Below, piece after piece: positions 6,376 to 25,450 of a stretch of 26,789 nt of DNA. A program made the position numbers and the translations under genes. Under the pieces are notes generated by a model. The model did not search any database and was not told where the DNA came from. It was given only the letters and a program-made list of their open reading frames with translations. Where the stretch lies: positions 1 through 26,789 of IMG/VR virus record IMGVR_UViG_2568526722_000004, one strand, 5' to 3'. Within the stretch, counting starts at the first letter, position 1; each line of letters begins with the position of its first letter. The stretch is from a virus (lineage: Duplodnaviria; Heunggongvirae; Uroviricota; Caudoviricetes).

Positions 6376-6912
6376 ATGTCATTTATTAAAACTTTTTCCG
6401 GGAAGCATTTTTATTATGACAGGATAAATAAAGACGACATCGATATTAACGATATCGCGGTTTCCCTTTCAAATATCTGTCGCTTTGCCGGTCATCTTTC
6501 GCACTTCTACAGCGTCGCCCAACATGCGGTTCTTTGCAGCCAGCTGGTGCCGCAGGAATTTGCTTTTGAAGCGTTAATGCATGATGCAACAGAAGCGTAT
6601 TGCCAGGACATTCCCGCACCACTGAAACGCCTTCTTCCTGACTATAAACAAATGGAAGAAAAAATAGACGCCGTAATCCGTGAGAAATACGGGTTACCCC
6701 CAGTTATGAGTACGCCCGTGAAATATGCCGATCTCATCATGCTGGCAACCGAACGCCGCGATCTCGGACTTGATGATGGCTCTTTCTGGCCTGTATTGGA
6801 AGGTATCCCGGCAACAGAGATGTTCAAAGTGATTCCACTGGCTCCAGGCCATGCCTACGGGATGTTTATGGAACGTTTTAACGAGTTATCGGAGTTACGC
6901 AAATGCGCATGA
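6376..6912 (+). CDS. yfdR: HD-domain protein, YfdR-like 5'-deoxynucleotidase
   Basis: 178-aa protein from the ATG at 6376 with GGAGAA RBS; has H..HD-type metal-binding motifs (CRFAGH, MHDATEAY) typical of HD-domain phosphohydrolases. Confidence 0.55.
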   Translation: MSFIKTFSGKHFYYDRINKDDIDINDIAVSLSNICRFAGHLSHFYSVAQHAVLCSQLVPQEFAFEALMHDATEAYCQDIPAPLKRLLPDYKQMEEKIDAVIREKYGLPPVMSTPVKYADLIMLATERRDLGLDDGSFWPVLEGIPATEMFKVIPLAPGHAYGMFMERFNELSELRKCA

Positions 6913-7570: not shown

Positions 7571-7920
7571 TGGAGCCATACAGCCTCACACTCGATGAGG
7601 CCTGTCATTTTCTCAAGATATCCAGACCGACTGCCATTAACTGGATACGCACAGGGCGTCTTCAGGCAACACGCAAAGATCCCACTAAGAATAAATCTCC
7701 TTACCTCACAACACGACAAGCCTGCATTGCGGCTCTTCAGTCTCCGCTGCATACTGTCCAGGTGAGCGCGGGTGATGGCATAACAGAGGAAAGAAAATGT
7801 CACTCTTCCGCAGAGGTGAAATATGGTACGCCAGTTTCACATTGCCGAACGGTAAAAGATTTAAACAGTCTCTTGGAACAAAGGACAAAAGGCAGGCGAC
7901 AGAACTCCATGACAAGCTAA
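7570..7920 (+). CDS. Excisionase-like HTH protein (Xis/AlpA-type)
   Basis: ATG at 7570 with AGGTGA RBS; N-terminal [31 protein letters not shown] is an excisionase-type HTH; sits directly upstream of the integrase; the frame stays open to 7920, overlapping int by 124 nt, so the 3' end is uncertain. Confidence 0.5.
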
Positions 7921-8960
7921 AGGCTGAAGCATGGCGGGTCAGCAAACTTGGTGAAATACCTGATATAACGTTCGAGGAAGCGTGTGTCAGGTGGCTTGAA
8001 GAGAAAGCACATAAAAAATCACTGGACGATGACAAAAGCCGGATCGGATTCTGGCTTCAACATTTCGCAGGAATGCAACTAAGAGACATTACTGAATCAA
8101 AAATTTATTCAGCAATGCAGAAAATGACGAACCGGCGTCATGAGGAAAACTGGAAACTCAGGGCAGAAGCATGCAGAAAAAAAGGGAAACCTGTTCCAGA
8201 ATACACGCCAAAACCAGCGTCCGTTGCAACGAAGGCTACGCATCTTTCATTTATAAAGGCCCTACTAAGAGCCGCAGAGCGTGAATGGAAAATGCTGGAT
8301 AAGGCACCAATTATTAAAGTGCCCCAACCAAAGAATAAACGGATCCGCTGGCTGGAGCCCCATGAAGCACAAAGGCTGATTGATGAATGTCCGGAGCCAT
8401 TAAAGTCTGTTGTTGAATTTGCACTGGCAACAGGCCTAAGACGCTCGAACATCATCAACCTTGAATGGCAACAAATAGATATGCAGCGCCGGGTGGCATG
8501 GATAAACCCGGAAGAGAGTAAATCAAACCGCGCAATTGGCGTTGCGCTGAATGATACTGCATGTCGCGTATTGAAAAAACAAATCGGGAATCATCACCGT
8601 TGGGTATTTGTGTACAAGGAAAGCTGTACCAAACCAGACGGAACGAAAGCGCCAACAGTCAGGAAGATGCGGTATGACGCAAACACAGCCTGGAAAGCGG
8701 CGCTGAGACGGACTGGTATTGATGATTTCAGATTTCACGACTTGAGACACACCTGGGCAAGTTGGCTGGTTCAAGCCGGAGTCCCGTTGTCAGTGTTACA
8801 GGAAATGGGAGGCTGGGAGTCTATCGAAATGGTTCGTCGATATGCTCACCTTGCACCTAATCACCTTACCGAACACGCACGGCAAATAGACTCGATCCTA
8901 AACCCATCGGTCCCAAATTTGTCCCAGTCAAAAAATAAGGAAGGTACTAATGATGTGTAA
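7797..8960 (+). CDS. Tyrosine recombinase, lambdoid phage integrase
   Basis: 387-aa ORF; N-terminus [14 protein letters not shown]... (arm-binding type); C-terminal catalytic region ...[40 protein letters not shown] with the conserved HxxR and Tyr motif; ends 13 nt before a copy of the thrW 3' end. Confidence 0.85.
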
Positions 8961-8972
8961 CTTATTGATTTA

Positions 8973-8990
8973 AATGGTGCGATAATAGGA
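8973..8990. repeat. att core repeat (copy of the thrW 3' end): attR of element A and attL of element B
   Basis: AATGGTGCGATAATAGGA matches 25344-25362 AATGGTGCCGATAATAGGA (18/19, one C missing), same orientation. Confidence 0.7.
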
Positions 8991-9049
8991 ACAAATCAAA
9001 CCACATAACCAATTGATTTCTATTATATTTTTATGTTTTAGTTTTCAAC

Positions 9050-9070
9050 ATACCCCCAAAAGTACCCCCA
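9050..9070. repeat. 21-bp repeat ATACCCCCAAAAGTACCCCCA (candidate integrase arm-type site), copy 1
   Basis: Exact 21-bp direct repeat of 25211-25231; contains an internal TACCCCCA duplication; lies about 60 bp inside the left att core. Confidence 0.6.
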
Positions 9071-9307: not shown

Positions 9308-10288
9308 TCATGCTAAAGCTCGAGCTACATTTTCTTTGATCGCAATAGCACAAGGAGTTTTGAACTTTTCTTTGCAACAGTGTAATAGCGTATTAATATT
9401 CAAATCAGTTTCAAGAATATTTTTTAGCTCACTCTTTCTTTCCGAGATTAAGGTTGGTTTATCTTTGCATTGTTTGACTATTAAGGCAGTTTCATTAATA
9501 TTCAATTGCTCTATCAATGATTTTATGACAGGCATGACAACTCTATCAGCTAAAAAATGACCATTGATATATTGATAGGCGTTATCTTCTCTCAATCCTT
9601 TATCATATAACTGCTCATAGAATTTATCAGCATCGTATTCATCTTGAATAAGGTTATCAAGTTTTTCTTCAATAACCGCTTTAGATTGCTGCATACTTTC
9701 AAATACAGCATTTTTGATAACAAATTGGTTCGTTAATCGTGGCACAGAAGGAGCAATCGCTTCATGGAAAACTGAGTCATCAAGTCTAACTTGATGCTGT
9801 TTAAGCAATAAAAATTTCTTCAGCACGGGGTAGATCAACCGTGAATACTCTGTAATGTATGCTGTAAAATCGAATTTAATTTCAGTAGCGATCTTTATTT
9901 GAGAAAGACAATACTCAAGGACTTCATGGTGTAACTCGATGCTCTCTTTTGAATATACAAATGTTTGAAAAATAAACTTGTTACTGCAAATTATCTCTGA
10001 GTCTGTACTGTTTTTAGGGCATAAATAATCAAAATCACTATCCATTGCAAATATGGCATATCGATTTGCTCGGCTCATGAATTTTTTTAATACTGGTTTC
10101 CCTTTTGTTCCTTTATTGGTAGGGTTACAAATATCAAAACGTATATCATTATCTTTATCGTTTAATAAGCCTTCCCAGAAAGAAATGTCTTTTAGACCTT
10201 CAACAAAGACAAAGCCATTGTGTCCAGCCATAATACAATATACCTGAAGATATTCTTCGCTAAAATTAATATCCTCAAACTCAGTCAT
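9308..10288 (-). CDS. ariB: AriB-like DUF4435/Toprim protein (PARIS defense system effector)
   Basis: 326-aa ORF overlapping the upstream ATPase gene by 8 nt; N-terminal Toprim-like features (MAGHNGFVFVEGLKD..., acidic AIFAMDSDFDY); low GC; the pairing with an ABC-type ATPase is the PARIS (AriA/AriB) architecture. Confidence 0.6.
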   Translation of the reverse strand: MTEFEDINFSEEYLQVYCIMAGHNGFVFVEGLKDISFWEGLLNDKDNDIRFDICNPTNKGTKGKPVLKKFMSRANRYAIFAMDSDFDYLCPKNSTDSEIICSNKFIFQTFVYSKESIELHHEVLEYCLSQIKIATEIKFDFTAYITEYSRLIYPVLKKFLLLKQHQVRLDDSVFHEAIAPSVPRLTNQFVIKNAVFESMQQSKAVIEEKLDNLIQDEYDADKFYEQLYDKGLREDNAYQYINGHFLADRVVMPVIKSLIEQLNINETALIVKQCKDKPTLISERKSELKNILETDLNINTLLHCCKEKFKTPCAIAIKENVARALA

Positions 10289-11276
10289 GAGAAGATTCCT
10301 TTGAAATATTTTTTATATCTACGAAAGAATCCATCCAGCCTTTCATTAATATTGCAGGACTATGAGTAACAATAATTAACTGACAATTATCGTTAATTGA
10401 TTTGATGGTGCTTATTAATCTTTCTTGCCACGTAAGGTGCAAGGATATTTCTGGCTCATCCATCAACAAGACAGATTCATCCAATGAAGTATTAGCTGTT
10501 TTAATCAGAATATATAACAACTGACGTTCACCTGATGAAAGAAGATTATACCTAATATCTTCACCAGAATCACTCATCTTAATAGAAATGTTACCATTAC
10601 TAAAAGAAACAACTTTGTTACATTCAGCAAATAAATTATTTATAGCTGATTCCAACTTATCCTTTATGAGAATACCTTTAGACTCACTTACTTTGAAAGT
10701 ATTCTTTAACCTTTCTAATTCACCAGCAATTTCCATATCAAGAATTGTGGTGCGCTCACCATCACTTTTTTTGAATTCATAGATGGAATTGGCACTCATA
10801 TTGATAGTTGATATTAACTCAACATTTATTCGCTTAGTGTTTTTAATATTATCACTTACGCTAACAGTTCCCATCCCGAACTCTTTAATTTCAGTGTCTT
10901 CTTTTTTCGATTCAAGCAACTCAATAAGTTCATTTAACTCCTTTATTTCCTTACCCTTTGATTTACCTTTAATACTGTTTTTCTTAAGGTTATTAAGTAG
11001 GTTTAGAAGCTGGACAGAGTCAATTTCGCGAAAATTAACTTTGTGAGTAATTGTGCCTCCATTGGCCAATGTTATTTGAGCCAACGCAGCATTACTTAAA
11101 CTTTCATTTAATTCTTGTTTTAAGAGGGCAAAAACACTTTGAATTATCGTGCTCTTACCTGAGCCATTTTTACCCACTAAAACATTCACATCTTTTAAAC
11201 TCCAATCAATGTCCTTCCGTTTAAAAAGACCTTTGATTGCTATATTTTTGATTATCGTCGCCACTCTCGTATCCAT
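10281..11276 (-). CDS. ariA: AriA-like ABC/AAA_15-21 ATPase (PARIS defense system sensor)
   Basis: 331-aa ORF; Walker A GKNGSGKST, signature-like LSSGERQLL, Walker B LLMDEPE, H-loop IIVTHS; low GC. Confidence 0.65.
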   Translation of the reverse strand: MDTRVATIIKNIAIKGLFKRKDIDWSLKDVNVLVGKNGSGKSTIIQSVFALLKQELNESLSNAALAQITLANGGTITHKVNFREIDSVQLLNLLNNLKKNSIKGKSKGKEIKELNELIELLESKKEDTEIKEFGMGTVSVSDNIKNTKRINVELISTINMSANSIYEFKKSDGERTTILDMEIAGELERLKNTFKVSESKGILIKDKLESAINNLFAECNKVVSFSNGNISIKMSDSGEDIRYNLLSSGERQLLYILIKTANTSLDESVLLMDEPEISLHLTWQERLISTIKSINDNCQLIIVTHSPAILMKGWMDSFVDIKNISKESSHD

Positions 11277-15175: not shown

Positions 15176-15684
15176 GCGCCTATTGTCTCCTTTGCTGCCC
15201 GGCGCTGGCGTTTGCGCTTCTCATTCAGCGCCACCAGCCGCGTTTCTGCGTCCTGTTGTTCCTGTGGTGTCACCTCGCCGCACGGCTGGCCTTTCAGGTC
15301 GTAGCGTACCCCACCAGCCATTAAGGCGCGGTAATAGTGCGGACACTGCGCATAAGATGCCAGCGTCGCACGCAATGCCCCTGGCCCGAATGCCAGCCCC
15401 CTGACGGCGAGATCCTGCATCAGGTCGTCGAATATCCCCACCTTAAGCGGCTTCGGTGCTTCCCGGCTGAATAAGTCAGGCCACAACTCAGTGAGGCGGT
15501 TAACGCGCCTGCGGTTTTTGCGCTGGCGTTTGGTCATATGCCGCCACGGTGTCGCCCCTGTGGGCTTTTGCTGCGCTTTCTGGTTACCGGGCATCACTTT
15601 ATGCGCCGATGTGGTTTTATGATCTTACCCAGCAATAGTGGACACGCGGCTAAGTGAGTAAACTCTCAGTCAGAGGTGACTCAC

Positions 15685-15984
15685 ATGACAAAAACAGTAT
15701 CAACCAGTAAAAAACCCCGTAAACAGCATTCGCCTGAATTTCGCAGTGAAGCCCTGAAGCTTGCTGAACGCATCGGTGTTACTGCCGCAGCCCGTGAACT
15801 CAGCCTGTATGAATCACAACTCTACAACTGGCGCAGTAAACAGCAAAATCAGCAGACGTCTTCTGAACGTGAACTGGAGATGTCTACCGAGATTGCACGT
15901 CTCAAACGCCAGCTGGCAGAACGGGATGAAGAGCTGGCTATCCTCCAAAAGGCCGCGACATACTTCGCGAAGCGCCTGAAATGA
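15685..15984 (+). CDS. insE: IS3 transposase OrfA (InsE)
   Basis: 99-aa product [32 protein letters not shown]... with AGGTGA RBS; matches IS3 InsE from memory. Confidence 0.9.
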
Positions 15985-16847
15985 AGTATGTCTTTATTGA
16001 AAAACATCAGGCTGAGTTCAGCATCAAAGCAATGTGCCGCGTGCTCCGGGTGGCCCGCAGCGGCTGGTATACGTGGTGTCAGCGGCGGACAAGGATAAGC
16101 ACGCGTCAGCAGTTCCGCCAACACTGCGACAGCGTTGTCCTCGCGGCTTTTACCCGGTCAAAACAGCGTTACGGTGCCCCACGCCTGACGGATGAACTGC
16201 GTGCTCAGGGTTACCCCTTTAACGTAAAAACCGTGGCGGCAAGCCTGCGCCGTCAGGGACTGAGGGCAAAGGCCTCCCGGAAGTTCAGCCCGGTCAGCTA
16301 CCGCGCACACGGCCTGCCTGTGTCAGAAAATCTGTTGGAGCAGGATTTTTACGCCAGTGGCCCGAACCAGAAGTGGGCAGGAGACATCACGTACTTACGT
16401 ACAGATGAAGGCTGGCTGTATCTGGCAGTGGTCATTGACCTGTGGTCACGTGCCGTTATTGGCTGGTCAATGTCGCCACGCATGACGGCGCAACTGGCCT
16501 GCGATGCCCTGCAGATGGCGCTGTGGCGGCGTAAGAGGCCCCGGAACGTTATCGTTCACACGGACCGTGGAGGCCAGTACTGTTCAGCAGATTATCAGGC
16601 GCAACTGAAGCGGCATAATCTGCGTGGAAGTATGAGCGCAAAAGGTTGCTGCTACGATAATGCCTGCGTGGAAAGCTTCTTTCATTCGCTGAAAGTGGAA
16701 TGTATCCATGGAGAACACTTTATCAGCCGGGAAATAATGCGGGCAACGGTGTTTAATTATATCGAATGTGATTACAATCGGTGGCGGCGGCACAGTTGGT
16801 GTGGCGGCCTCAGTCCGGAACAATTTGAAAACAAGAACCTCGCTTAG
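15981..16847 (+). CDS. insF: IS3 transposase OrfB (InsF), DDE catalytic domain; expressed as OrfAB by -1 frameshift
   Basis: 288-aa ORF overlapping the orfA stop (ATGA); DDE-type integrase core (…HTDRGGQY…, …[11 protein letters not shown]…). Confidence 0.9.
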
Positions 16848-16982: not shown

Positions 16983-17316
16983 ACTGTCTACCAACTGTCT
17001 ACCGATATAATTGTTTGATTTATTTAATGTTATTAATACATAACAAAAAAACAATCTGCAAACTGTCTACCAACTCTCTACAGTATTAATACATTGATAA
17101 TTAATGACTTTTACTAAATGGTAGACAGTGTAGATAGTTAAAAGAAAAATTTTAAAAATGAACCCATAACTATCTATTTTTAGATACCCCCGTGGTTTAG
17201 AAATATAAAATAAACTGTCCACCTCTCTACCACATTAAAAATACCTATATAATTCAAAACATTAATTAGTAGATGGTTGGTAGAGGGTTAAGTGTATCTG
17301 TCTACCAACCGTCTAC
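16983..17316. repeat. Iteron-like repeat array in AT-rich DNA downstream of the primase gene (candidate replication origin)
   Basis: CTGTCTACCAACTGTCTACC (16983-17002), CTGTCTACCAACTCTCTAC (17063-17081), inverted GGTAGACAGTGTAGATAG (~17120), CTGTCCACCTCTCTACCAC (~17215), inverted GGTTGGTAGAGGG (~17276), CTGTCTACCAACCGTCTAC (17298-17316). Confidence 0.6.
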
Positions 17317-22613: not shown

Positions 22614-22811
22614 TCAGGTAGCTGTTCCGCGTGATTCCGCAATACGCTGATTAATCCACTCGTCAATTTCACTCTCAACGAAAGCAATAGCTCGCGAGCC
22701 AATTTTAACTGATGCAGGAAATTTACCTTGCCCCATAAGGCGATAAATCCATGCCTTGCTATATCCAGTTCTACGCTGAACTTCTGTTAAACGAATAAGC
22801 GTATTTGACAT
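22614..22811 (-). CDS. alpA: AlpA-family phage transcriptional regulator
   Basis: 65-aa ORF: MSNTLIRLTEVQRRTGYSKAWIYRLMGQGKFPASVKIGSRAIAFVESEIDEWINQR, a typical AlpA HTH; sits downstream of a P4-type integrase. Confidence 0.8.
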   Translation of the reverse strand: MSNTLIRLTEVQRRTGYSKAWIYRLMGQGKFPASVKIGSRAIAFVESEIDEWINQRIAESRGTAT

Positions 22812-23842: not shown

Positions 23843-23964
23843 ACCTCAGCGTCCTCTACTGTAGTGGCTGTACCAGTCCGTCGAGGTGTACGGATTTTCG
23901 GGAGCGACCCTAGACACAGCCTTTTCTTTCGTCGCTCAAAGTCTACTACTGTATACTCAACCAG

Positions 23965-25179
23965 TCACCCGCATTTTCCGAACTCACCATGCACCACATT
24001 TCCGCCATGCTCGAGCGAATCCATATAATCAGCGTACCACTGAAGCATTTCCCGCCGCCCATCCAGATATTGCGCATGGTTGTATGTGCCACGAATTGAG
24101 TTTTTATCGACGTGCGCAAGCTGTGTCTCTATCCACGCGGTGTTATAGCCCTGCTCATGCAAAATGGTGCTCATAGTGTGCCGGAAGCCATGACCAGTAA
24201 CCTTTCCGTTATAGCCGATGCGTTTAAATACTTGGTTTATGCTAGCCTCGCTCATTGTTTTCCTTGGATCATTACGGCCGGGAAACATAAGCGGATAATT
24301 GCCAGTTAGTTCTTTAATCTGCCCAATAAGCGAAAGAGCCTGCTCAGACAAAGGCACTACATGAGGGCGACGCATTTTCATCCGTGAAGCAGGTATCTCC
24401 CAGATAGCCTTGTTGAGATCGATTTCATCCCATAATGCACCGCGCAGTTCGCCAGTCCGCAAACCGGTGATAATCAGTAAACGAGCCGCCATAACAACCA
24501 ATGCACTTCCTGAGTAACTGGACAATGCCTTGAAAAAATCAGGTAATTCTTTGGCTGTGAGGAAAGGATAATGATTAGATTCATGACCTTGCATCGCGCT
24601 GGTGAGATCCGGTGCAGGGTTATACTCAGCACGTCCAGTGACAATTGCATAGCGGAAAACTTCCCCACATCGCTGCCTCACTTTTTTGGCTTTTTCGGTA
24701 GCACCGCGCCCCTCGATGCGCCGCAGCACATTCAGCAGTTCAAGTGGTTTGATTTCGGCGATTGGTTTTTTGCCAATGTAAGGGAACACATCTTTGTTGA
24801 AGGCTTCGAGGATGTCTGAAGCATAACCAGCAGACCATTTTTTTAATTTGCTGCTGTGCCACTCAAGGGCAATATCTTTGAAGGTGTTGTTTAACTGCGT
24901 TTCCCGGGCAATCTTTTCCTCTCGTTTCGCTTCCATCGGATCGATACCCCCAGCGATACCCCTTTTAGCTTCTTCACGTTTTGCACGAGCATCAGCCAAG
25001 GTAACTTCAGGATACACACCTAGTGCTAACAGCTTCTCTTTACCAGCTACACGATACTTGAAGCGCCAATATTTTCCTCCACTAGGTTTTACCAAGAGAT
25101 ACAGACCACCACCATCAGCCAGCTTGTAAGCCTTCTCTTTTGGCTTGGCAGTGTCTATTTGACGGGCATTGAGTTTCAC
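23965..25179 (-). CDS. Tyrosine recombinase, P4-type integrase
   Basis: 404-aa ORF next to and co-oriented with thrW; N-terminal MKLNARQIDTAKPKEKAYKLADGGGLYLLVKPSGGKYWRFKYR... (P4-integrase N-terminal domain type) and C-terminal ...GHGFRHTMSTILHEQGYNTAWIETQLAH...Y catalytic region. Confidence 0.9.
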   Translation of the reverse strand: MKLNARQIDTAKPKEKAYKLADGGGLYLLVKPSGGKYWRFKYRVAGKEKLLALGVYPEVTLADARAKREEAKRGIAGGIDPMEAKREEKIARETQLNNTFKDIALEWHSSKLKKWSAGYASDILEAFNKDVFPYIGKKPIAEIKPLELLNVLRRIEGRGATEKAKKVRQRCGEVFRYAIVTGRAEYNPAPDLTSAMQGHESNHYPFLTAKELPDFFKALSSYSGSALVVMAARLLIITGLRTGELRGALWDEIDLNKAIWEIPASRMKMRRPHVVPLSEQALSLIGQIKELTGNYPLMFPGRNDPRKTMSEASINQVFKRIGYNGKVTGHGFRHTMSTILHEQGYNTAWIETQLAHVDKNSIRGTYNHAQYLDGRREMLQWYADYMDSLEHGGNVVHGEFGKCG

Positions 25180-25210
25180 TTGGGGGTACCTCCACTAAAC
25201 CGAACAGCAA

Positions 25211-25231
25211 ATACCCCCAAAAGTACCCCCA
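25211..25231. repeat. 21-bp repeat ATACCCCCAAAAGTACCCCCA (candidate integrase arm-type site), copy 2
   Basis: Exact direct repeat of 9050-9070; lies between the integrase start and the tRNA. Confidence 0.6.
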
Positions 25232-25343
25232 ATTGACTGTAGATTTTGGAGTACTTAAGTAGACGTCAAAAGACTAAAAGGGGCGCTAACATGCGGATTA
25301 TAAGAGGTTTTTAAATACTTGAGTAGACTTGGGGATACATTAG

Positions 25344-25362
25344 AATGGTGCCGATAATAGGA
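25344..25362. repeat. att core at the thrW 3' end (attL of element A)
   Basis: AATGGTGCCGATAATAGGA overlaps the last 17 nt of the tRNA gene; imperfect direct repeat at 8973-8990. Confidence 0.7.
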
Positions 25363-25421
25363 GTCGAACCTACGACCTTCGCATTACGAATGCGCTGCTC
25401 TACCAACTGAGCTATATCGGC
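25346..25421 (-). tRNA. thrW: tRNA-Thr (anticodon CGU)
   Basis: Reverse complement is GCCGATATAGCTCAGTTGGTAGAGCAGCGCATTCGTAATGCGAAGGTCGTAGGTTCGACTCCTATTATCGGCACCA: 76 nt, cloverleaf-compatible, anticodon loop TTCGTAA, encoded CCA; sits immediately downstream of proA as thrW does in E. coli. Confidence 0.95.
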
Positions 25422-25450
25422 CCTGAAAGGACATGTTCACGAACGTGAAT

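Follow-up and report, generated by a model that had tools for sequence, protein, structure and literature searches.

A 21-bp direct repeat in both arms of a thrW-borne island as a probable pair of arm-type sites for the island's DUF4102-type integrase

The window, that is, the whole stretch of 26,789 nucleotides of viral DNA analyzed here, carries a tRNA-Thr(CGT) gene, thrW, with proA beyond it. Two copies of a core made up of the thrW 3′ end delimit an island of about 16.4 kb (Table 1). The integrase gene (int) follows thrW on the same (minus) strand, and attL falls between the two genes. The int start lies 166 bp downstream of the tRNA 3′ end, and this 166-bp spacer contains all the proximal sites described below. 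Besides the integrase, the island encodes an AlpA-family protein, Ant-like and Icd-like proteins, a primase, homologues of ProQ/FinO and PerC, and an AriA/AriB (PARIS) pair; judged by this gene content, it looks like an island of the phage-satellite type. A phage collection was searched for close relatives of the island, and none was found. In E. coli 94EC the same island stands alone between thrW and a LysR pseudogene, with the same distal junction and without the prophage that adjoins it in the window. Position 8965 onward is therefore the island junction, and all the motif copies treated below as sites belong to the island.

The neighbour on the left of position 8960 is a separate P22-like prophage. 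Its 387-aa integrase (entry 7797-8992; matching Phage_integrase, without an Arm-DNA-bind_3 match) ends 13 bp before the distal core, so that thrW has two elements in a row. Past the core, the flank in 94EC resembles the prophage end, which suggests a remnant there. The distal core, TATCGCACCA, is short of one C/G compared with TATCGGCACCA of the tRNA. A related island of Citrobacter amalonaticus (L008) shows this deletion at its distal end (about position 16590) despite a different flank; this suggests that the island brings the deletion along in its own attP, and that strand exchange may take place within the last ~7 nt of the tRNA.

Several other features of the island were recorded. The PARIS-type defence pair forms the distal cargo (9308-11276, minus strand) and consists of AriA, an AAA ATPase (PADLOC E 2.6e-43), and AriB, a DUF4435 protein (E 3.6e-22). 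The ProQ/FinO-like gene is separated from the iterons and the primase gene by an inserted IS3-family element at 15676-16847 (orfA 15676-15984; orfB 15981-16847, PHROG transposase E 1e-130), which is absent from the otherwise ~100% identical island of 94EC. The iterons, CTGTCTACCAAC(T/C)GTCTAC at 16984-17316, lie just upstream of the primase gene and presumably constitute the island origin. They include the hexamer GTCTAC, which is also found in the RTCTAC repeats of the att arm. Directly downstream of the int stop, at 23853-23920 on the minus strand, is an int-alpA RNA motif (Rfam RF02996, 45.5 bits versus a gathering score of 35.8).

Table 1. Features of the island ends and of the attachment region (positions are those of the window).
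Feature	Position	Strand	Description
Distal att core	8973..8992	.	AATGGTGC-GATAATAGGA; left boundary of the island (island A), abuts the P22-like prophage end
IHF-consensus match	9006..9018	-	AATCAATTGGTTA fits WATCAANNNNTTR; in the AT-rich spacer from distal doublet to core; pattern match
Distal-arm (P-arm, attR) doublet	9050..9070	-	Sub-sites 9051-9058 and 9063-9070; exact repeat
AlpA-family helix-turn-helix protein	22614..22811	-	65 aa; Pfam Phage_AlpA E 2.4e-19
Integrase	23965..25179	-	404 aa, GTG start; arm-binding domain aa 3-88 (nt 24916-25173)
Intragenic degenerate doublet	24943..24964	-	aGGGGTAtcgcTGGGGGTAtc on the int strand; in frame, encodes RGIAGGI
Inverted fifth site	25181..25189	+	TGGGGGTAC on the plus strand, GTACCCCCA on the int strand
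Proximal-arm (P′-arm, attL) doublet	25211..25231	-	Sub-sites 25212-25219 and 25224-25231; -52 and -40 from the int start
Three direct RTCTAC repeats	25239-25244, 25259-25264, 25323-25328	-	Proximal arm only
Proximal att core	25344..25362	.	AATGGTGCCGATAATAGGA; last 17 nt of tRNA-Thr plus 2 nt
tRNA-Thr(CGT), thrW	25346..25421	-	ARAGORN; Rfam tRNA; integration target, same orientation as int
Exact TACCCCCA copies	9051, 9063, 25212, 25224, 24945, 6695, 25181-25188		24945 within the integrase gene; 6695 in the neighbouring prophage; 25181-25188 inverted

The 21-mer ATACCCCCAAAAGTACCCCCA, given as it reads on the plus strand, occurs in two exact copies. Further matches with up to three mismatches are found neither in the window nor in 100 dinucleotide-preserving shuffles. 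The internal 8-mer TACCCCCA is present in seven copies against 0.49 expected per window, a number reached in no shuffle, and five of the seven lie within ~80 bp (distal) or ~180 bp (proximal) of the cores. When one mismatch was allowed in the 8-mer scan of the window, no additional cluster appeared. The motif is confined to the att arms, far beyond chance. The 8-mer at 6695-6702 was rejected as a site; it belongs to the neighbouring prophage and is treated as a chance occurrence in view of the expected number.

On the int strand, the 9-mer TGGGGGTAY stands twice in each 21-mer, as a doublet with a centre-to-centre spacing of 12 bp. The gap from core to doublet amounts to 57 bp on the distal and 112 bp on the proximal side, and the three proximal copies are spread over 112-155 bp from the core. 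The third of these, the inverted copy, sits between the ribosome-binding site GGAGG (25189-25193, minus strand) and the GTG start codon. The motif is unrelated in sequence to the core TCCTATTATCGGCACCATT, on both sides of which its copies lie. The preliminary description had the repeat right in its exactness, internal duplication, direct orientation and positions. Its distances of about 60 bp inside the left core and about 110 bp inside the right core agree with the measured gaps, and its placement of the right copy between the integrase start and the tRNA is borne out by the annotation. The inverted copy, a degenerate doublet within int and the 1-nt indel between the cores are additions to that description.

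The intragenic doublet has the 12-bp spacing and the orientation of the arm doublets, and it is found in the closest clade only. In three relatives (L004, L012 and L014) it has been lost via synonymous changes. Being limited to one clade and unprotected from synonymous change, it is left as doubtful for a sixth and seventh site.

The integrase matches Arm-DNA-bind_3 (PF13356, aa 3-88, E 3.6e-29), Phage_int_M and Phage_integrase in Pfam. Its closest studied relatives are the IntS proteins of Sf6 and HK620, with 49% identity. Among structures in the PDB, 3ju0_A is matched with an E value of about 4e-27 (4.4e-27), and the solved arm-binding domain 3jtz is matched as well. The two entries were deposited as 'Phage integrase' (3JU0) and 'CP4-like integrase' (3JTZ); going by the citation in PMC8138268, they are probably the HPI and HAI7 structures of Szwagierczak 2009. 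An arm-binding domain of the DUF4102 type has an extra strand and helix compared with the lambda type (PMC8138268). The solved structures of the DUF4102-type family that were matched are apo structures only, and the literature examined reports no arm-DNA complex or recognition code for DUF4102-type integrases. The analysis presented here supplies a concrete consensus of putative arm sites for an integrase of this type.

To place the motif among relatives, the integrase was used as a query against one genome per species, which yielded 79 loci in ~40 genera with identities from 99% down to 61%. The loci share a layout of two direct copies and one inverted copy before the start codon, at offsets of -52, -40 and -9 from the int start. 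This layout is found beside integrases down to 62% identity and recurs at at least seven tRNA targets (Thr-CGT, Arg-TCT, Arg-CCT, Gly-CCC, SeC, Ser-TGA and Phe). Since the same layout occurs at seven tRNA targets, the motif follows the integrase and not the target. Among the 74 loci with a definable integrase N-terminus, about 40 have GGGG(G)TA at the same offsets, and most of the others have a variant motif in the same architecture. In 47 distinct upstream sequences, the information content is ~2 bits at GGGGG.A in the two direct sites and at CCCCC in the inverted one, and ~0 in the spacers. On the distal side, the doublet was found at every distal end that lay within the fetched DNA. It precedes the distal core copy by 75-78 bp in L023, L025, L033, L038 and L062 (GTATAG in the last), the window itself having 78 bp. 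L008 and L030 have distal doublets too, which makes five distal ends with a measured spacing to the core and two more with a doublet.

The preliminary description named, as outcomes that would speak against it, a motif absent from related islands or dispersed through the genome as a generic repeat. Neither was observed: the motif is present beside the homologous integrases, in the proportion given above and as variants elsewhere, and it is rare in E. coli chromosomes. In a search of 5,426 complete E. coli genomes at E values up to 10, a 30-bp probe around the motif hit no more than four places in any genome (median 1), and dispersal of the REP/ERIC kind across the chromosome was not found in these genomes. 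About 400 E. coli records hold an exact copy of the motif. O104:H4 carries a variant of the island in which the primase is a different one, flanked by the same six copies. A full-text search of the literature with the motif strings returned unrelated matches only.

Between lineages, all copies within a locus change together. The resulting classes are GGGGGTA, GGGGGCA, GGGGGCC (L070), GGGGTG (L076 and L080) and (T)GTATAG. The (T)GTATAG class comprises ten loci, including L062, whose distal doublet TGTGTATAGGAATGTGTATAGG is at the same distance from the core copy. Similarly, the inverted site at -9 switches class with the direct sites, as in TGCCCCCA, CTATACACA and GGCCCCCA. Over about 74 loci the motif class agrees without exception with residues 27, 29, 50 and 53 of the arm-binding domain. 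All of the ~39 GGGG(G)TA loci have an Int with Y/F/H27-L29-L50-(L/V/I)53, and all of the ~22 GGGGGCA loci have E/Q29-R50-F53; GTATAG is accompanied by S27-M50, GGGGGCC by K50 and GGGGTG by M50. No other island gene tracks the motif class when the 39 loci of the same class as the window are compared with the 35 loci of other classes. For instance, the 267-aa open reading frame adjoining int is present at 3 of the 39 same-class loci, and AlpA at 28 of these and at 15 of the 35 others.

Rough strand positions for the four residues were taken from an AlphaFold single-sequence model of the N-domain (pLDDT 54, low confidence), in which residues 25-30 and 50-59 fall in beta-strands. Beta-sheet readout is known for the arm-binding domains of lambda and Tn916 Int, and the modeled strand placement is consistent with this mode of recognition.

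It is very probable from these comparisons that the 21-bp repeat is an adjacent pair of arm-type sites for the N-terminal domain of the island's own tyrosine integrase. The integrase has an N-terminal arm domain, and the short copies lie on both sides of the core and travel with the integrase. The proposal of the preliminary description, in which integrase arm-type sites are spread between attL and attR, is thus supported by the relatives, by the Arm-DNA-bind_3 domain and by the residue co-variation. An arm-type site is the expected mechanism and ordinary biology; the case is unusually well supported by co-variation across about 75 islands.

Upon excision, the predicted attP would consist, in order, of the distal doublet (P1, P2), an AT-rich stretch of 57 bp that includes an IHF-like site, the 19-bp core, three RTCTAC repeats, the proximal doublet (P′1, P′2), 22 bp, the inverted P′3 and the int start. 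The total of ~260 bp would be the size of a lambda-type attP. Int would place its C-terminal domains on the core site and its N-terminal domain on an arm site, bridging the two across bent DNA. The intasome assembled by this bridging would carry out integration at thrW and, together with AlpA, excision. At the place of the IHF-like site, the spacer of relatives contains AATCAA/TTCAA elements, some of which are off the IHF consensus. A match to the IHF consensus was not found in the proximal arm.

The arrangement can be compared with that of lambda. Lambda Int, too, is a tyrosine recombinase of the heterobivalent kind, with its arm-binding domain at the N-terminus. Its arm-type sites (P1, P2, P′1-P′3) are likewise five short sites of non-core sequence in both arms of a roughly 250-bp attP, with adjacent sites about one helical turn apart. 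The IHF-type site between arm and core in lambda has a candidate counterpart here in the IHF-like site of the distal spacer. However, lambda differs in the family of the arm domain, which here is of the Arm-DNA-bind_3/DUF4102 type, and in the motif, which here is TGGGGGTAY. The core here lies within a tRNA gene, in contrast to lambda. Moreover, the int start codon is here 2 nt from a site, and, unlike in lambda, the signals for int expression and the sites overlap.

This overlap bears on the expression of int. P′1-P′3 lie within 60 bp directly before the int start codon. P′3 itself separates the ribosome-binding site from the start. Int bound at these positions should therefore shut down int; the int-proximal copies probably also repress int, as negative autoregulation. 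In KplE1, the P′ arm sites bound by IntS lie in attL, over the promoter of intS, and IntS has been shown experimentally to be self-repressing, a behaviour also predicted generally for tRNA-int pairs in the same orientation (PMC2951348). The IntS of KplE1 (CPS-53), whose recombination module includes TorI, belongs to the same integrase group as the IntS proteins of Sf6 and HK620. The tRNA and int are likewise co-oriented in KplE1, and the int-proximal arm (attL) likewise has P′ arm sites and sites of the recombination directionality factor (RDF) before int. The arm sites of KplE1 share a TAAA motif, whereas the motif here is TGGGGGTAY; the RDF there is TorI, with sites GTTCG/GATCG, and here probably an AlpA-family protein. 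Int and the RDF both repress int in KplE1 (PMC2951348), while repression is proposed here. Finally, KplE1 targets argW and its promoter has been mapped, whereas the target here is thrW and the promoter was not located by a consensus scan.

The scan covered 25100-25450 on the int strand, and in the interval from the tRNA to int it gave no match to a sigma-70 consensus promoter that could serve int. Reading by eye gives a TATAAT at 25297-25302 (minus strand) with a weak -35 only. The int gene of ICEKp1 is transcribed from the tRNA promoter and attenuated by stem-loops in its 5′-UTR (PMC13023037). Alternatively to a promoter of its own, int transcripts could thus come here from read-through of the thrW promoter. 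A promoter-like sequence was also noted at the other end of the island. It consists of TTGAAA (9043-9048), a 15-nt spacer and TATAAT (9022-9027) on the minus strand, directly after the distal doublet, and is directed over the core. Circularization of the excised island would bring it to face int, an arrangement reminiscent of the '3′-end promoter' of ICEKp1 (PMC13023037). Its spacer is short, the region is AT-rich and its conservation in relatives is patchy.

The DUF4102 integrases of the P4/HPI/ICEKp1 type are a further point of comparison. They share the N-domain family (E 4e-27 to 3ju0) and the tRNA 3′-end targets, and they likewise have an AlpA-type partner (the RDFs Vis and Hef). As here, int adjoins the tRNA with regulatory signals in the 5′ flank (PMC13023037). 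In ICEKp1, regulation has been ascribed to RNA stem-loops and promoter switching, not to the occupancy of arm sites (PMC13023037).

The AlpA-family protein of the island is the probable excision or directionality factor and a regulator, as suggested by its family. The RTCTAC repeats behave differently from the G-rich motif in the relatives. A TCAAC variant changes in all repeat copies together and assorts independently of the G-rich motif. A close AlpA accompanies 31 of the 38 TCTAC loci (7 are without one) and none of the 11 TCAAC loci, and the repeat follows the AlpA type with one exception, L013. The sites of an RDF are expected to follow the RDF and to lie in one arm; the RTCTAC repeats do so and the 21-mer does not. 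Because RTCTAC tracks the AlpA type and the G-rich motif does not, we assign the G-rich sites to Int and tentatively regard the RTCTAC repeats as candidate AlpA/RDF sites.

The int-proximal copies could instead act in RNA. In a thrW-int read-through transcript, GGGGGUA of the second direct copy would pair with UACCCCC of the inverted copy, and the 3′ arm of this hairpin, between the Shine-Dalgarno sequence and the start codon, would attenuate transcription or block the translation of int. The minimum-free-energy fold of 25170-25345 (minus strand) does pair exactly those copies (-43.9 kcal/mol, z -2.0), RNAalifold gives for 16 diverse relatives a 7-bp consensus stem in which five pairs have changes on both sides, and the related DUF4102-type int of ICEKp1 is controlled by just such a combination of tRNA promoter and 5′-UTR stem-loop (PMC13023037). 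Nevertheless, the z-score is modest, since 12 of 200 shuffles fold equally well. Moreover, the stem is the motif itself, with pairing that extends no further, and any inverted pair of protein sites gives the same signal. Pairing in RNA also leaves unexplained the first direct copy, the doublet form, the match with the integrase N-domain residues and the distal doublet, which is 16 kb away and outside the int transcript when the island is integrated. It is therefore unlikely that RNA pairing accounts for the copies; for the 21-bp repeat, a hairpin is possible as an added layer, not as an alternative to arm-type sites. The same fold also contains a long-range helix of the first direct copy with TATCCCCA (25330-25337), which was rejected as the upstream element is not class-specific in relatives.

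Binding of another island protein is a much weaker contender. That the doublets are sites for the AlpA-family directionality factor, or for some other regulator of the island, has precedents in lambda Xis and KplE1 TorI, RDFs that act on short tandem direct repeats in the att arms (PMC2951348), and the AlpA gene is 2.4 kb from the int start. The motif is, however, on both arms, and it persists where the full 10-kb flanks hold no AlpA homologue (L045 and L077). Closely similar AlpA proteins accompany the GGGGGTA, GGGGGCA and GTATAG classes alike, the repeat that follows the AlpA type is a different one, RTCTAC/RTCAAC, and for another regulator there is no island gene that co-occurs with the motif class. 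This explanation is thus highly improbable. Still less can be said for the 21-mers as a functionless relic, left by duplication of an att flank in tandem or serial integration, or as a generic genomic repeat. Tandem elements do occur at thrW, as illustrated by the P22-like prophage that abuts the island here and by another prophage in O104:H4. Against a relic, the identity ends abruptly at the edges of the 21-mer, the motif persists from genus to genus between diverging flanks, and the copies change in concert between lineages; the few places per E. coli genome argue against a generic repeat. We give this possibility next to no weight.

Clustering by the catalytic region (aa 100-400) groups the integrases by tRNA target, and the arm classes are mixed inside five of these clusters (Thr, Arg-TCT, SeC, Ser and Gly), so that the association of N-domain and motif arose or was shuffled repeatedly. 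The integrases of L016-L018, for instance, are 83% identical to that of the window in the catalytic region and 70% in the N-domain, and their sites are GGGGGCA. Together with the mixed clusters, this points to two separate modules, one of the N-domain with its sites and one of the catalytic domain with the core; the motif class depends neither on the catalytic domain nor on the tRNA target. Since the N-domain adjoins the proximal sites, linkage could explain part of their correlation. It does not extend to the matching distal doublets, which in attP are separated from the proximal sites by the core and by RTCTAC repeats that have not changed, although the distal ends in this comparison are few (five plus two) and L023 is mixed T/C.

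A more far-reaching proposal, which we hold possible and short of probable, is that the arm-binding domain and the five sites form an exchangeable specificity cassette with a readable code, shuffled among integrases for at least seven tRNA genes. The proposed code would read T at motif position 7 with L29/L50/L53 and C at that position with E or Q29/R50/F53; S27/M50 would go with GTATAG and K50 with GGGGGCC. Shuffling of the cassette might provide orthogonality to islands in tandem at one tRNA, each Int assembling intasomes on its own arms only. If the association is causal, arm specificity of the DUF4102 type would be predictable and could be re-engineered from sequence. The match of three or four N-domain residues with one site base is in this sense a specificity hypothesis that may be used in the design of orthogonal integrases. 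The novelty is modest and consists in the explicit consensus, the clean residue-to-base co-variation and the modular shuffling of the arm-recognition cassette. The result also delimits the likely functional attP, attL and attR of widespread thrW-borne, PARIS-carrying, satellite-like islands of E. coli and its relatives, and can be employed in annotating island boundaries.

One tandem arrangement was observed among the related loci. In Photorhabdus asymbiotica (L038, 17114-17330), an island of the GGGGGTA class ends at its distal core, and a GGGGGCA doublet follows ~120 bp on. This doublet appears to have the geometry of the proximal arm of a second island, and the locus appears to hold tandem islands of different arm classes at one tRNA.
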